Source: Promethearchaeota archaeon (lineage in GTDB: Archaea > Asgardarchaeota > Lokiarchaeia > Sigyniarchaeales > SOKP01). Taken from it: a DNA stretch of 31,169 bases. Position 1 is the first letter of the stretch. Every line of letters begins with the position of its first letter. The DNA is taken from the NCBI GenBank assembly GCA_048940925.1, contig JBHLOC010000036.1, positions 15,923 to 47,091 on the forward strand, in the 5' to 3' direction. The translations under genes and the position numbers were made by a program. A model generated the notes under the pieces. It did not search any database. It saw only the letters and a program-made list of their open reading frames with translations, and was not told where the DNA came from. Below, one piece after another: positions 21,347 through 26,900 of the stretch.

Positions 21347-22153
21347 ATGTTTGCGAAAAATTACTTAGATCAAGTCGATCAAGTATTTCAAGGCAAAAAA
21401 AGTAGTATAATTATAGAGGATTTTGGTGGAATGCGAGAAGGTGCTACTTTAATTCTAGGGTTCGCAGGAATAGGACTTATTGGACCAATTGTGGCTAATA
21501 CCTTAATAGAGCAATTACCAGATATAAAAGAGATAGGGTTTGTTACTAGTGAGTATCTCCCTCCAATTAGCGTTTTTTATGCGGGAGTTTTAAAACATCC
21601 TTTCAGAATTCTATATTCCCCTCAACATAACTTAATTATCGGGGTGTGTGAAGTTCCTTTTCAGGTGAGCAATGCTTATAATGATCTTGCTAAAACAATT
21701 TGTAATTGGGCCTTATCAGATGATATTAAGGCAAAAGAAATAGTAATTTTCCAAGGAATCCCACAGCGTGGTATTATTGATGAATATCCAGTTTATTATG
21801 CTGCTGAAGAAGTTATGATGAAATCTCTTGAGAAATTTGGAATCTCTAAAGTAGAGAAAGGAATTATCGTGGGACCTGAGGCGACCGTTTTAAATGAAGC
21901 TTTAACCAATCATTTAAATGCTTTTGCCTTGTTTACTCCAGTATTAGAAATTCCGACTCCTGAAGGTGCTGCTAGCATTTTAGAAGTATTAAACAAGATA
22001 TATGAATTAAATATAGATACAACCCAACTTATAGAACAAGGAAAAGATATTAAAGCTAAAATGTTAGAATTAGCACAGAAAGCGCAAGAATATCAAAAAC
22101 AACAAGCTGCTTTACCTGGATCTGGCAAAGAGTACACAGGTTATTTTCAATAA
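21347..22153 (+). CDS. Proteasome assembly chaperone PAC2 family protein
   Basis: LILGFAGIGLIGPI, LPPISVF, HPFRILY, GIIVGPEATVL, PTPEGAASILEVL, IDTTQLIEQGKDI. Confidence 0.88.
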   Translation: MFAKNYLDQVDQVFQGKKSSIIIEDFGGMREGATLILGFAGIGLIGPIVANTLIEQLPDIKEIGFVTSEYLPPISVFYAGVLKHPFRILYSPQHNLIIGVCEVPFQVSNAYNDLAKTICNWALSDDIKAKEIVIFQGIPQRGIIDEYPVYYAAEEVMMKSLEKFGISKVEKGIIVGPEATVLNEALTNHLNAFALFTPVLEIPTPEGAASILEVLNKIYELNIDTTQLIEQGKDIKAKMLELAQKAQEYQKQQAALPGSGKEYTGYFQ

Positions 22154-22380: not shown

Positions 22381-22833
22381 TTGGGGAGATTTAAGGAGAA
22401 GTTTATTCCAGTCCAGATAAATCAGGAATTATGTTTAAAATGTGAGCGATGTTTACGCGCTTGTAAAGCTAAAGCTATATATTTTGAGCATGGAATTAGA
22501 ATGGTTGACTACAATAAATGTAGAGCATGTTTAAATTGTGTTCAAGTCTGCCCTCGAAATGCAATTGAAGTAACATCTATTCTTAGGAAAGATCAAGTGA
22601 TAAGCATAAAAATTGATCACGAAGATTGTTCTATGTGTGAAGAATGCTTGGATGGAAGTGGTAATTTTTGTCCTAAGAATCTTTTTTATGTTGATAAATT
22701 TAAAAATAAACAAGACGAAGAAATTAAAGGTATCAAATTTAAGTTTAAAGAAATTGCAAAATGTCAGGGATGCTTAAGATGTGCTGACCTCTGTCCCGAA
22801 AATGCAATAAAACCAGTTAAATATGAAATTTAA
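22381..22833 (+). CDS. Polyferredoxin (four 4Fe-4S motifs)
   Basis: CLKCERCLRAC, CRACLNCVQVCP, CSMCEECLDGSGNFCP, CQGCLRCADLCP; TTG start. Confidence 0.88.
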   Translation: MGRFKEKFIPVQINQELCLKCERCLRACKAKAIYFEHGIRMVDYNKCRACLNCVQVCPRNAIEVTSILRKDQVISIKIDHEDCSMCEECLDGSGNFCPKNLFYVDKFKNKQDEEIKGIKFKFKEIAKCQGCLRCADLCPENAIKPVKYEI

Positions 22834-23480
22834 GATTCGAGTTTTTGAATTTTTTTTACTAAGTCATTTAAGTAGAGGTTTCCCATTCCTAATTTGACAA
22901 GTTCAGAGAAAAATAAAACGACTGCGAATCTCATTTCTTGGATATCTATATAATAGGAGCAAATTTTATGATTATTTTCTAATTCGAGATACATCTTCTT
23001 TAAACTACTAAGTTTTTTCTCACTCCTTACTTCAAATTCTTTAATTATCGAAAATAATGTAGTACTTGGAAGAGAAGAATATAAAACATGCCCATCTACA
23101 TTAAATAATCCAGTTCCCAGAATTTCTTTATCATCTACATAACTTCTTAAAAGGTTAATAATCTCTTGGAACAACGGTTGGGTCGTTAAATCTTTAGTTT
23201 GCTCTTTTTGTTCTATCTCACCGCCTCCTTCATAAAATTCCATTTTAGAAAATTCAAAATCGACCTTTTGATATCCACGAACTTTAAAATTTTTATCTAC
23301 GAAGGACTGAAAACTATGACCACATACAGTTCCAGAGGGAATTGATATAGTAGTCAATTGTTTACTCTGGTTTATAATTTGAGTAGGTATTTTCAATTCT
23401 TTTCTTGTTTTGCAGGTTGGGCAAACTACAGTAATATCTTCATACAACTCTTTAGCTGCAATATCATCTGTCTCGATCAT
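22830..23480 (-). CDS. Zn-ribbon + roadblock/profilin-like domain protein
   Basis: N-terminal CPTC...CGH ribbon; C-terminal ILGTGLFNVDGHVLYSSLP and LGMGNLYLNDLVKKI resemble the roadblock/MglB fold. Confidence 0.62.
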   Translation of the reverse strand: MIETDDIAAKELYEDITVVCPTCKTRKELKIPTQIINQSKQLTTISIPSGTVCGHSFQSFVDKNFKVRGYQKVDFEFSKMEFYEGGGEIEQKEQTKDLTTQPLFQEIINLLRSYVDDKEILGTGLFNVDGHVLYSSLPSTTLFSIIKEFEVRSEKKLSSLKKMYLELENNHKICSYYIDIQEMRFAVVLFFSELVKLGMGNLYLNDLVKKIQKLES

Positions 23481-23636: not shown

Positions 23637-25208
23637 TTATAATTCAAATCTCTGATCAGTCCAACCAAGACTTGAAAACGCATTTGCTCTTTTAGAACAA
23701 CTTGAACATTTCCCGCAGGGTTCTTCTCCATCACTATAGCAACTCCATGTTAATTCAAATGGGACTTTTAATTCTTTAGCTAATTTTAATACATCTTCTT
23801 TTCTCATTTTGATTAGAGGAAATATTAATCTAATTTTGCGTTTATCTTTTGAATGTTTTCCCGTATTAATCAATTTTTCAATTGAGTTAAAGAATTGAGA
23901 ATTAGTATCAGGAAACTTCTTAGTATCAATCATAATATGTCCTCCTATTATATAATTACATCCATATACTTCTGCGTAATAAGCTGCAATAGAATAAAAT
24001 ACAAGATTTCGCATTGGAATGAATCCTTCTGGAGCATGAATAGCACTTGGAACAGGGAATCCTTCTATTCTCAAATCTATACTTTCTTTTAAATATTCTA
24101 TTGGAACCTCAATTATGTTCACTCGCAAAATTTCAGCTAACTTTTTAGCTGCCAATTTCTCTTTTTCTGGGCGGAAATGATAATTAAAGGATATGGCATA
24201 CAACTCATAACCTTCATGATGTGCCAAGAATAAAGCAGTAGCAGAATCGAGTCCGCCAGATAGTAATATAATCGCTTTTTTTTCAACTTCTTTCTCTTTA
24301 GGGACTAATTTTGCTACGACTGAAGCTTTAACCGCTGTATTAATATCTGATAAATCAAAACCTAAAGCATTAGCTGTTTTATTACCATCTGAAATAATAT
24401 CACACTGCATGACATCTATCATTTCTTTACAAATACCAAATTTTTTAGGTGCTTGATTATAAGGTATAGATTCAATTCGGGGTGTTGGAACATTAAATCC
24501 AATCTCTCTCATGACTTTAAGCACCATATCTATTAAATCACGCATATCAATTATTTTTGGACCAACAAGGTCGTATACTTGATTGCTTTTACCTATTCCA
24601 TCTGCAGCAGCTAAAAAAGCTCTAACAGCATCTTTTACAAATATAGGTTGCATTGAAATTTTTCCACTACCAGCAATATAGATAGTTCCCGCTCCAATCT
24701 GTTCAACCATATCCGGGATTATTTCATCACTTGAACCTAAAATGTAAGAAGGTCTAAAAATAACATAAGGAACATCACTTTCGCGAATAATTTGTTCAGC
24801 TACCCATTTAGAGCGAAAATATTCATTATTAGCCCAACTAATTTTGCCATATTTATCAACTCCTAAACCTGAAGGGAATATAATTCGAGAAATTTTTACT
24901 TCTTTTGCTGCCTTAACAATTGTTTTTATACCCTCAATGTTAATTTTCTCGAATTTTTCTTTAGATCCACATACGACTCCTCTAAAATGAATTAATGCTT
25001 TACATCCAACTAATACTTCTTTAATTGAGTCAAAATTAAAATCTGTTATGACTATAGCTTTAGCACCTAAGCTTTTTACTTCTTTTGCTGCATCTTCTCG
25101 ACGGACAATTCCAATAATATCCCAACCATTTTGAATGGCTTGTTTTATAGTATGTTGTCCTAAATATCCATTAGCACCTGTAATAACTAATTTTTTAGTT
25201 TCAATCAT
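23637..25208 (-). CDS. queC: Fusion: NAD(P)-dependent extended/atypical SDR (about aa 1-300) + 7-cyano-7-deazaguanine synthase QueC (about aa 308-523)
   Basis: SDR: ITGANGYLG, YFRSK (YxxxK), FRPSYILG, QPIFVKD. QueC: AIILLSGGLDS, IPMRN, TWSCY-x6-CGKCSSC zinc site. No stop between the domains. Confidence 0.88.
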   Translation of the reverse strand: MIETKKLVITGANGYLGQHTIKQAIQNGWDIIGIVRREDAAKEVKSLGAKAIVITDFNFDSIKEVLVGCKALIHFRGVVCGSKEKFEKINIEGIKTIVKAAKEVKISRIIFPSGLGVDKYGKISWANNEYFRSKWVAEQIIRESDVPYVIFRPSYILGSSDEIIPDMVEQIGAGTIYIAGSGKISMQPIFVKDAVRAFLAAADGIGKSNQVYDLVGPKIIDMRDLIDMVLKVMREIGFNVPTPRIESIPYNQAPKKFGICKEMIDVMQCDIISDGNKTANALGFDLSDINTAVKASVVAKLVPKEKEVEKKAIILLSGGLDSATALFLAHHEGYELYAISFNYHFRPEKEKLAAKKLAEILRVNIIEVPIEYLKESIDLRIEGFPVPSAIHAPEGFIPMRNLVFYSIAAYYAEVYGCNYIIGGHIMIDTKKFPDTNSQFFNSIEKLINTGKHSKDKRKIRLIFPLIKMRKEDVLKLAKELKVPFELTWSCYSDGEEPCGKCSSCSKRANAFSSLGWTDQRFEL

Positions 25209-25422
25209 TTGGATACTTTATTATTGTTTATTAATTTTAACTTAAATCGATTTTTAAATTTTAAATAAAATAAATGATAATTCTTTTTAATGAAATCTAT
25301 TTTAGTAGTATGAAAAATTCTTTCTATTTATTATTTTAAATAATAAACTATAAAAGGGCTAAATAGCTTCAATTAAACAAAAAATTGAATCAAACAAGTC
25401 CTAAAAAAGGGGTAATCTATTT

Positions 25423-25878
25423 ATGGGATATAAAGTAAGTATAAACTCAACCGAAATTAAATTTAGTGCGTGTCATTTTTTAAAAAAACCCTCTCAATGT
25501 TCAAGACTTCATGGTCATAATTATTATGTCTCTGTTGAAATTTCGGCTGATTTAGATGAAAATCATTTTGTAGTAAATTTTATTGAATTAAATAAGAAAC
25601 TAGAAGAGATAATAAAACCTATGGATCATTACATCTTGGTACCAACAGAATCCAATGATTTAAAGATTATTGAAGAAATGGATTCAGTAAAGATCGTTAC
25701 ATCTGGCAAAGAGTACGTCTTTCCTCAATCCGATGTTTATTATCTCCCTTTACCAGCTACTACTAGCGAACTATTGGCAAAGTATATTCATAACAAATTA
25801 AAAGAAATATATAGTGATAAAAAAATAGTAGTTAAAATCGGAGAAAGTCAAAGTACAATGGCATCCTATGAGGAATAA
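25423..25878 (+). CDS. queD: 6-carboxy-5,6,7,8-tetrahydropterin synthase QueD / PTPS family
   Basis: FSACHFL, CSRLHGHNY, DHYIL, TTSELLAKYI, GES; divergent from queC. Confidence 0.9.
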   Translation: MGYKVSINSTEIKFSACHFLKKPSQCSRLHGHNYYVSVEISADLDENHFVVNFIELNKKLEEIIKPMDHYILVPTESNDLKIIEEMDSVKIVTSGKEYVFPQSDVYYLPLPATTSELLAKYIHNKLKEIYSDKKIVVKIGESQSTMASYEE

Positions 25879-26003: not shown

Positions 26004-26900
26004 GTGTTGAGTGATAAAAATTATAAGATTGGAATACTGTACGGAACTCATCCAGATACTGAGATGTTAGCTCAAAAATTCGCTGGCAACCTCATAAATA
26101 ATGAAGAATTCTGTAAAGCATGTGAAAACCTAGATCAAAATGTCAAATGTGATAAATGTCGTGAGCATGTAAAGAGTTTTGCAGGTTCTATTTATTTTTA
26201 TGAAAAGATTGGTGAAAATATCCCTGATTTTATAGAAGAACCTGAACAATTTTTGCCTAAAAATCTTCCCCAAGTAGATTTTATTTTAGTAGTAGGAATT
26301 CATCAAGATTTGTTATCTGGTCTTCCATATTATCTTAAAGACAAAAAAAGTGTAAAAGCTGTAATTGTTCCCATAGAAGATCCTAAATGGGTTCCCGCTG
26401 GTCTTCAAGTTCAAGTTTTAGAAGAATTCGAAAAGTATGGAATTCAGGCAGCTTTTCCTAAACCATTTTGTTCTTTAAGTAGAGAACTAAATGAATATAA
26501 TAAAGTTGGTTTTAACCTCACGAAAGAACATAATTATGTATATGAATTTATAGATTATTTTAAAATAGGAGTTCCAATTGTATCCTTATTATTAAGTAAA
26601 GATGGGGAATCTATTGAAGATACTTGTGTGTTACAATCAGCACCATGTGGGAGTAGTTATTATGTTTGTCAACAACTTAAATCAAAGTATTTTAAAAATG
26701 GGAAAAGTGGGGACTTATCATTAAATGAAAGAATTAGTAAAGCTCATCATGCATATCCGTGTAATGCCTCAATGGATCAAGATAGTATTTTGAAAGATTC
26801 AATCCTTCATGTTGGAGGGTATTTGATCCGAAATGCAATAAGGCGAGAGCTAAATCTAGAAGAACAAGAAGGTCAAAAACTTGTATATGTTATAAAGTGA
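26004..26900 (+). CDS. DUF166-family Cys-rich protein
   Basis: GIHQDL, FPKPFCSL, SAPCGS, HHAYPCNASM, LHVGGY; N-terminal CxxC-x8-CxxC. GTG start. Confidence 0.78.
   Translation: MLSDKNYKIGILYGTHPDTEMLAQKFAGNLINNEEFCKACENLDQNVKCDKCREHVKSFAGSIYFYEKIGENIPDFIEEPEQFLPKNLPQVDFILVVGIHQDLLSGLPYYLKDKKSVKAVIVPIEDPKWVPAGLQVQVLEEFEKYGIQAAFPKPFCSLSRELNEYNKVGFNLTKEHNYVYEFIDYFKIGVPIVSLLLSKDGESIEDTCVLQSAPCGSSYYVCQQLKSKYFKNGKSGDLSLNERISKAHHAYPCNASMDQDSILKDSILHVGGYLIRNAIRRELNLEEQEGQKLVYVIK

Follow-up and report, generated by a model that had tools for sequence, protein, structure and literature searches.

A conserved fusion of a short-chain dehydrogenase/reductase with QueC in Asgard archaea, a candidate route to preQ0 without QueE

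To our knowledge, the radical S-adenosylmethionine (SAM) enzyme QueE has been treated as universal and obligatory in all 7-deazapurine biosynthesis, that of queuosine, archaeosine, DNA deazaguanines and toyocamycin-type antibiotics included. In Crenarchaeota, GAT-QueC combines a glutamine amidotransferase (GAT) with a QueC-like domain and has been implicated in archaeosine formation. A gene of another composition was found in a window of 31,169 nt from a Promethearchaeota (Asgard) genome (contig JBHLOC010000036.1, positions 15,923 to 47,091), where a short-chain dehydrogenase/reductase (SDR) is joined to a QueC domain in one polypeptide divergent from queD (Table 1). Like GAT-QueC, this fusion consists of an archaeal QueC-family domain and a helper catalytic domain in 7-deazaguanine metabolism, while its helper is an NAD(P)-binding SDR instead of a glutaminase (no Pfam GATase family matched the fusion protein), and ArcS-like and RaSEA genes occur in the same genome. 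Compared with QueE, the SDR is not homologous and has no Fe-S or SAM motifs, but the slot that QueE fills between QueD and QueC is taken in this gene set by the SDR, which may be functionally equivalent; the phyletic distributions of QueE and the fusion are complementary. QueD and SDR::QueC could thus form a QueE-independent route to 7-cyano-7-deazaguanine (preQ0) with the SDR giving the redox chemistry, a reading for which the odds are close to even but somewhat short of it.

Both halves of the protein were recognized by domain models. Residues 4-232 matched NAD_binding_10 (1.5e-20), Epimerase (8.2e-20) and NmrA (7.2e-15) in Pfam, while the classical SDR families PF00106 and PF13561 (adh_short) gave no match, so the domain is of the extended or atypical type. 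Residues 311-513 matched PF06508 with 1.9e-54 (184.8 bits, cut-off 22), and the NCBIfam model TIGR00364 for QueC was barely reached (151.9 bits, cut-off 150.3); the QueC domain is about 30% identical to QueC of Bacillus subtilis (3bl5). The original prediction, which read the 523-aa frame as a complete SDR plus a complete QueC, was borne out by Pfam, NCBIfam and conservation, and the motifs it had named were all present (TGANGYLG, YFRSK with Y130/K134, SGGLDS, IPMRN and C490/C498/C501/C504).

In a search of 5.8 billion proteins, at least 120 clusters of homologues were found, with lengths of 507-570 aa, identities of 50-79% and coverage of 95-100%, and the Pfam domain sets of SDR and QueC were both present in all those listed. 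The named clusters among the matches listed were only '7-cyano-7-deazaguanine synthase' from Asgard metagenome-assembled genomes, a database name that conceals half of the protein. The counts of fusion and QueE below refer to 400 Asgard species-representative genomes. A six-frame scan gave the uninterrupted fusion frame, with zero internal stops, in 67 of them, so the earlier suggestion to look for SDR+QueC proteins of about 520 aa in other Asgard genomes met with a positive result. The linker sequences varied among homologues, and the frame stayed open throughout.

A homopolymer of eight bases (T8 on the plus strand, A8 in the gene, 24276-24283) spans the junction of linker and QueC, and it had been cautioned that an error there might split the gene. 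Such an artefact, two genes joined in the assembly, would agree with the position of the homopolymer and with other phyla having SDR and queC as separate genes, but a frameshift was rejected because the same open frame is conserved in 67 independent genomes and at least 120 clusters with different linkers, which leaves this explanation a negligible chance. In the AlphaFold2 model, built with 58 homologues, the mean predicted local distance difference test (pLDDT) score was 89.2 and the predicted template-modelling (pTM) score was 0.66. Confidence was low only in the linker (pLDDT 65, residues 301-310) and one QueC loop, while the pTM indicates two well-folded domains whose mutual orientation and interface were not confidently placed. 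The SDR tetrad, the glycine motif, the Arg-Arg pair, the PP-loop and the zinc cysteines were all invariant in the alignment of 58 fusions. On these comparisons the fusion is genuine, conserved and under selection, and since the catalytic motifs of SDR and QueC are invariant, both halves look catalytically competent and equally conserved.

Table 1. Features of the SDR::QueC locus (positions in the window)
Feature	Position	Strand	Basis or remark
SDR::QueC gene, whole, 523 aa, ATG start	23637..25208	-	Open reading frame call, Pfam, NCBIfam
N-terminal extended/atypical SDR domain, NDUFA9-like, residues 1 to about 302	24303..25208	-	Pfam PF13460/PF01370/PF05368, Foldseek
Lys/Glu-rich linker, residues 303-310	24279..24302	-	pLDDT dip, sequence
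C-terminal QueC domain, non-canonical subtype (QueC*), residues 311-523 and stop	23637..24278	-	PF06508
Divergent intergenic region, 214 bp	25209..25422	.	AT-rich block about 25325-25385, GGGG before queD start
queD (6-carboxytetrahydropterin synthase, Cx3HGH type), divergent partner	25423..25878	+	PF01242 2.2e-23
DUF166 Cys-rich protein, directly after queD	26004-26900	+	PF02593
PAC2 proteasome-assembly-chaperone family protein	21347-22153	+	
Polyferredoxin	22381-22833	+	
216-aa protein with CxxC pair	22830-23480	-	No Pfam match

The query used to search for QueE was a genuine Asgard QueE, encoded by the queE-queD-queC operon of a genome in the same class (L117); its best NCBIfam matches were all QueE models. 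Orthologues 41-53% identical to it were found in 77 of the 400 genomes. There were none in the 53 genomes of genus g1, including the closed genome G189, and none in g4, g7, f2 and f4; one of 42 g12 genomes had QueE, and that genome was without the fusion. The intact fusions came from genera g1 and g12 of the window's family, from g4 and g7, and from a single genome of g11; those of the sister families f2 and f4 were more distant, with 34-38% identity. No genome with an intact fusion had QueE (0/67) and no genome with QueE had an intact fusion (0/77), counts that overstate independence, the genomes being related. The sole overlap was G164 with a broken fusion, in which the SDR frame was out of phase, the QueC part contained stops and the PP-loop was lost. 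QueE-positive genomes gave weak matches to the QueC part of the fusion only, and their queE-queD-queC operons contained canonical QueC (e.g. G155). Switches between fusion and QueE were seen inside genera g11 and g12. Together with the conserved fusion, its conserved neighbourhood and the co-loss of QueD described below, this complementarity forms the pattern classically left by non-orthologous displacement.

The queD gene was divergent and upstream of the fusion in 48 of 53 Asgard loci, and QueD was orthologous, with 56-75% identity, in fusion-type and QueE-type genomes alike. In every g1 or g2 genome without QueC, QueD was also missing or decayed, some genomes having remnants of both, and about ten further genomes of the genus had neither fusion nor queD. 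The module appears, from these losses, to have been lost repeatedly in the window's genus. The pairing of the fusion with queD, and its head-to-head arrangement over 214 bp, were both features of the original prediction and were confirmed by the measured spacer, by the linkage and by the co-loss. In five genomes of the window's genus (G177, G183, G187, G191 and G225), all that is left of the fusion is a piece of about 100 aa from the C-terminal end of QueC, and in G183 queD was also full of stops. In family f21 (G117 and G119-G122), QueE orthologues 52-53% identical to the query contained one to three in-frame TAG codons, with TGA/TAA also in G117; these matches exceeded the query in length by about 90 nt, which could reflect insertion, recoding or decay.

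The genome of the window has 4.8 Mb, a marker-based completeness of 100% and a contamination of 8.4%. An MptA-type GTP cyclohydrolase (255 bits, cut-off 220), arcTGT (TgtA, 463 bits, cut-off 350) and RaSEA (338 bits, cut-off 212) were identified. RaSEA lies directly after an ArcS-like gene (G000:C7:116747-119924; L002, L005), whose product contains DUF5591 and PUA domains, has 696 aa with an N-terminal extension, and scored 294 bits against an NCBIfam ArcS cut-off of 440. Thus MptA, arcTGT, ArcS-like and RaSEA genes were present out of the list that had been proposed for inventory, while QueE, FolE and QueF were not found in the genome (the QueF T-fold domain, PF14489, matched neither the fusion protein nor any other part of it). 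The fusion was the only true QueC, with no second QueC, and a YhhQ-type preQ0 transporter was absent from this genome and from closed genome G189.

The QueE models matched in this genome only a 248-aa NrdG2-type activase (C55), apart from weak matches that were traced to MoaA, to a glycyl-radical activase, to an AhbD-like gene and to two 222-aa radical-SAM paralogues (C32 and C75). C55 was rejected as QueE: it passed the NrdG2 cut-off, two NrdD genes were present, and the activase was found in 52 of the 53 genus members, those without any QueC included, as well as in genomes of the QueE type. The paralogues C32 and C75 were rejected too, since their distribution was patchy and closed genome G189 has neither.

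The TGT-family genes of the genome were only arcTGT and the ArcS-like gene. By its gene content, the consumer of preQ0 is the ordinary archaeosine machinery, and nothing was present to use 7-aminomethyl-7-deazaguanine (preQ1). Since no gene present would use preQ1, a replacement of QueF by the SDR, which would reduce preQ0 to preQ1 and had been put first in the original prediction, is very improbable. The absence of QueF and the NADP-type, reductase-like SDR would suit it, but the absence of QueF is normal in archaea, ArcS/RaSEA require the nitrile, and no bacterial-type TGT for preQ1 was found. The conserved Cys-Asp (DVMxCD, C269-D270), the only candidate for a QueF-like nucleophile, was rejected as the Cys is gone in f2/f4 fusions. 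A modified sugar as the product of the SDR, also suggested earlier, gained no support.

A QueE-independent route to preQ0 is proposed because of the conserved fusion, the conserved neighbourhood with both flanking pathway genes, the co-loss of QueD, and the complementarity with QueE and canonical QueC. We infer both the production of preQ0 by this module and the chemical step of the SDR. The module would belong to Asgard archaea that lost QueE and canonical QueC. QueD would form 6-carboxytetrahydropterin (CPH4), and hydride transfer by the SDR would enable the ring contraction from pterin to pyrrolopyrimidine, with loss of ammonia and without a radical. CPH4 might first be oxidized at N5-C6, giving a transient dihydropterin that is later re-reduced; the ring would then open and reclose onto C4a, ammonia and water would be lost, and a final hydride reduction would give the aromatic 7-carboxy-7-deazaguanine (CDG), the net process being redox-neutral. 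The QueC domain, as ATP-dependent carboxylate-to-nitrile synthetase, would convert the carboxylate into the amide and then the nitrile, and the product would feed arcTGT and then ArcS/RaSEA for archaeosine.

In a wider form, which is held only tentatively, an NAD(P)-dependent SDR would replace QueE on CPH4 without radical-SAM chemistry, alone in anaerobic archaea or, in aerobic bacteria, together with a flavoprotein of the DAO family, and would be fused to QueC in one Asgard order, so that QueD and one polypeptide would suffice for preQ0. One NADP-bound SDR with a GDP-mannose-dehydratase-type action would do both steps in anaerobic archaea, while in aerobic bacteria the flavoprotein of the same operon would do the oxidation and the SDR the reduction. 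The redox-neutral scheme would explain why anaerobic archaea manage with a single NADP-bound SDR and why a DAO oxidase and an SDR reductase are paired beside QueD in aerobic bacteria. Precedents exist for both kinds of chemistry: dihydropteridine reductase (DHPR), PTR1 and FolM are SDRs that transfer hydride to or from pterins, and GalE, GDP-mannose 4,6-dehydratase and UDP-apiose/xylose synthase (the last with a ring contraction) perform redox-neutral rearrangements on bound NAD(P)+.

The SDR domain forms a two-domain fold of about 300 aa, and for the greater part of residues 10-300 the pLDDT exceeded 90. Its cofactor motif TGxxGxxG was found as T10-G-A-N-G-Y-L-G17, and G11, N13, G14, G17, R36-R37, N90, S113, Y130 and K134 were invariant in the 58 fusions, which includes YxxxK and its upstream Ser and Asn. 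An Arg-Arg pair following strand 2, as R36-R37 here, is typical of NADP binding. In an alignment of 27 sequences over three phyla, Y130 and K134 were invariant, and S113 and N90 were at least 90% conserved. The closest solved sequences belonged to the family of the 39-kDa/NDUFA9 subunit of complex I (9g83_P, 1.2e-17), including an alphaproteobacterial NDUFA9 homologue, and Foldseek also gave NDUFA9/NUEM chains first (E about 1e-18, target template-modelling score 0.66-0.78), followed by GalE-type epimerases. NDUFA9 is regarded as non-catalytic and NADPH-binding. With this family the domain shares GxxGxxG, YxxxK and NADPH-type basic residues, but it is only about 20% identical, keeps the full N-S-Y-K tetrad, and is fused to QueC outside any respiratory complex. 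With the pterin SDRs (dihydropteridine reductase, PTR1, sepiapterin reductase and FolM) it has Rossmann SDR chemistry in common, while those are classical SDRs and adh_short did not match it. GalE-type epimerases, extended SDRs with transient oxidation, were among its fold matches. No specific relationship was found to the pterin SDRs or to the transient-oxidation SDRs, and a transfer of substrate from characterized enzymes is not supported by the comparisons, as none is close enough. A complex prediction of QueD with the SDR domain gave a score of 0.01 in a run without controls.

The nearness to NDUFA9 bears on another explanation, in which the QueC domain would be an ordinary CDG-to-preQ0 synthase with an accessory SDR, and an unrecognized enzyme would do the QueE step. 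The SDR would then re-reduce oxidized CPH4, remove a by-product, sense NADPH or serve as an NDUFA9-like scaffold. The nearest solved relatives being non-catalytic NADPH-binding subunits, the known pterin-reducing SDRs (DHPR, PTR1 and FolM) and the pTM of 0.66 with no fixed domain interface all fit this, and so does the unlinked SDR of one sister family (f3, below). But the N-S-Y-K tetrad and the NADP arginines are invariant across fusions of 50-79% identity, which argues for catalysis, and no QueE substitute emerged: neither the NrdG2-like gene nor the 222-aa radical-SAM genes nor the DUF166 gene beside queD tracked the fusion. An accessory role would also leave without explanation the presence of the SDR exactly where QueE was lost, and this explanation is judged unlikely.

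The canonical QueC signature, as refined by experiment, comprises the PP-loop, YxQxHxxE, VPxRN, YPDC and C(x)8CxxCxxC, with an essential Arg and Tyr (Y189 in Escherichia coli), and the Y131F variant of E. coli QueC kept partial activity (PMC13329287). In the fusion, the PP-loop SGGxDS was present as S317-G-G-L-D321-S322, invariant in the 58 fusions. The zinc site was also present, with C490-Y491, C498-x2-C501-x2-C504 all invariant and a first spacer of 7 instead of 8 residues, and VPxRN was found as I397-P398-M-R400-N401 with P and N invariant and R at least 90% conserved. YxQxHxxE was replaced by Y343-H-F-R-P-E-K-E350, in which Y, R and E were retained while Q was changed to F and H to P; this YxFRPxxE pattern was common to all SDR-linked QueCs. 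YPDC was replaced by F432-P-D434-T, with the aromatic residue retained as Phe and the Cys absent. Equivalents of the essential Y35, R99, aromatic 131 and Y189 were thus kept in the fusion. Compared with canonical QueC (PF06508 cluster 1, TIGR00364; 3BL5 and the E. coli enzyme), the fusion shares SGGxDS, the VPxRN-type IPMRN, the four-Cys zinc site, the essential Tyr and the adjacency to queD, and differs by the 300-aa N-terminal SDR, by C(x)7C for C(x)8C, by YxFRPxxE and FPDT, and by never occurring alongside QueE. All SDR-linked QueCs stood outside the canonical QueC clade (support 100/99), which includes the Asgard QueE-linked QueCs; the non-canonical subtype is called QueC* here. On a Nitrososphaeria-like contig (L137:6173-7657), QueC* lies directly 3' of a 275-aa QueD-type protein made of a 130-aa N-terminal domain and QueD, and no SDR is there.

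These replacements would also fit another product. QueD and SDR::QueC* would in that case make a different CPH4-derived compound, such as 6-carboxamido-, 6-cyano- or 6-aminomethyl-pterin or a modified deazapurine, and archaeosine would be made from salvaged preQ0. Three conserved substrate-pocket positions are replaced (Q and H of YxQxHxxE and C of YPDC), and about ten genomes of the genus live without the module. Against it, the essential QueC residues are retained, the YhhQ transporter is absent as described above, and a strict exclusion between the fusion and QueE with canonical QueC (0/67 and 0/77) would be unexpected if the pathways were unrelated, as would the switches inside genera and the decay of the fusion in the one genome that has QueE besides it. 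A different product also has points on both sides in other lineages, and altogether it is rather unlikely.

When the SDR alone was used as query, its family proved to be linked with que genes in three phyla. A separate SDR is followed by a separate queC in Bathyarchaeia (L081, L082 and L086, including the closed genome CP070659.1), and four metagenome contigs (L023, L024, L025 and L027) also have separate SDR and queC genes. These SDRs have 279-313 aa and are 41-47% identical to the SDR domain; they are translationally coupled to queC, with which they overlap or from which they are 4 nt apart. By this arrangement, the link of SDR and queC is older than the fusion. In Vicinamibacteria (Acidobacteriota), an SDR 29-36% identical is the first gene of operons with a DAO-family flavoprotein and a QueD-type PTPS. 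A separation of SDR from queC, which had been held to count against a joint role, occurred only in sister family f3 (G131 and G132): there the SDR lies between glycoside hydrolase genes, and the same QueC subtype is still found elsewhere in the genome. An action of the SDR on a QueD-derived pterin, as the original prediction had offered, fits the linkage in three phyla, while the side branch of sepiapterin-reductase type that came with it does not. A bacterial metagenome contig (that of P0188) has overlapping genes for a classical SDR (adh_short), QueC*, DAO and PTPS/QueD, and a radical-SAM gene was not nearby.

Several facts weigh against the QueE-independent route. We know of no non-radical route from CPH4 to 7-deazaguanine. 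A substitute for QueE, highly divergent or without homology to it, may be encoded elsewhere in the genome, and the exclusion has been counted among related genomes. QueC* is also common without SDR, as on the Nitrososphaeria-like contig, and because of this its motifs are not specific to the SDR and alone are no proof of a new substrate. Bathyarchaeia with SDR and QueC* have arcTGT but neither QueE nor PTPS/QueD, even in the closed genome, and since PTPS/QueD is missing there, CPH4 made by QueD cannot be the starting compound of their SDR and QueC*. In Vicinamibacteria, a canonical queD-queE-queC operon is present as well and QueC* is not, so their SDR-DAO-queD operon is redundant or has another product. 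Genomes of f2 and f4 have, beside the distant fusion, a standalone canonical-type queD-queC pair. These facts in Bathyarchaeia, Vicinamibacteria and f2/f4 keep alive the readings with a different product, an accessory SDR or tRNA-bound preQ0. For a different product, Vicinamibacteria and f2/f4 speak in favour, while Bathyarchaeia, keeping arcTGT with SDR and QueC* as the sole que genes, speak against. In an f4 genome (G279), the queD-queC pair is followed by a purine phosphoribosyltransferase-like gene of 163 aa (L118:5058-6854), with the distant fusion in the same genome. The Bathyarchaeial order was rejected as an independent replicate of the exclusion between QueE and SDR: 0 genomes of the order have QueE, and it is uninformative.

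An action on tRNA-bound preQ0, by which position 15 would come to carry archaeosine or a reduced derivative, would suit Bathyarchaeia with SDR and QueC*, where there is one TGT-family gene, hence no ArcS, and neither QueD nor QueE. GAT-QueC of Crenarchaeota, for which such an action has been proposed, would be its precedent; Phillips et al. reportedly described in 2012 how a QueC-like domain joined to a helper domain takes part in forming archaeosine. But the window's genome already has ArcS-like and RaSEA genes, the tight pairing and co-loss with queD would be left unexplained, and the genomes would have no QueC for preQ0 synthesis, which makes this improbable.

No SDR-QueC fusion, link of this SDR family to que genes or QueE-less de novo pathway was described in the literature searched, which included a QueC-family survey of July 2026 and a genome-mining preprint on deazapurine clusters of April 2026; the earlier statement that no SDR-QueC fusion was known is in agreement with this. 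A large Asgard lineage, near to the archaeal ancestors of eukaryotes, has arcTGT and QueC but no QueE, and the same holds for some Bathyarchaeia; an oxidoreductase is always fused or coupled to their QueC. If the SDR does provide the missing chemistry, a ring contraction for which only a radical reaction has been known would have a new enzymatic solution, which would tolerate oxygen, do without Fe-S clusters and be of interest for biocatalysis. Reconstructions which score these archaea as incapable of archaeosine synthesis would then be corrected. If instead the product is some other pterin or deazapurine, it would itself be new.

The queD gene scored 73 bits with TIGR03367 QueD, under the cut-off of 89 bits. 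Seven orthologous spacers between queD and the fusion were aligned, with invariant columns at positions 120-147 of the window's spacer, and a near-invariant TATTTATTGTTTT..CATAAA.TATAAAAATA was found in the AT-rich block. This conserved block is probably a shared promoter or operator. The Rfam scan of the window matched no family, and there was no riboswitch in the spacer. The PAC2, polyferredoxin and 216-aa neighbours were not conserved beside the fusion in other genera. DUF166, whose conservation is unusually high with 80-94% identity within the genus, was rejected as the enzyme for the missing QueE step, as it is found in 113 of 135 genomes of the family whatever the type of que pathway.

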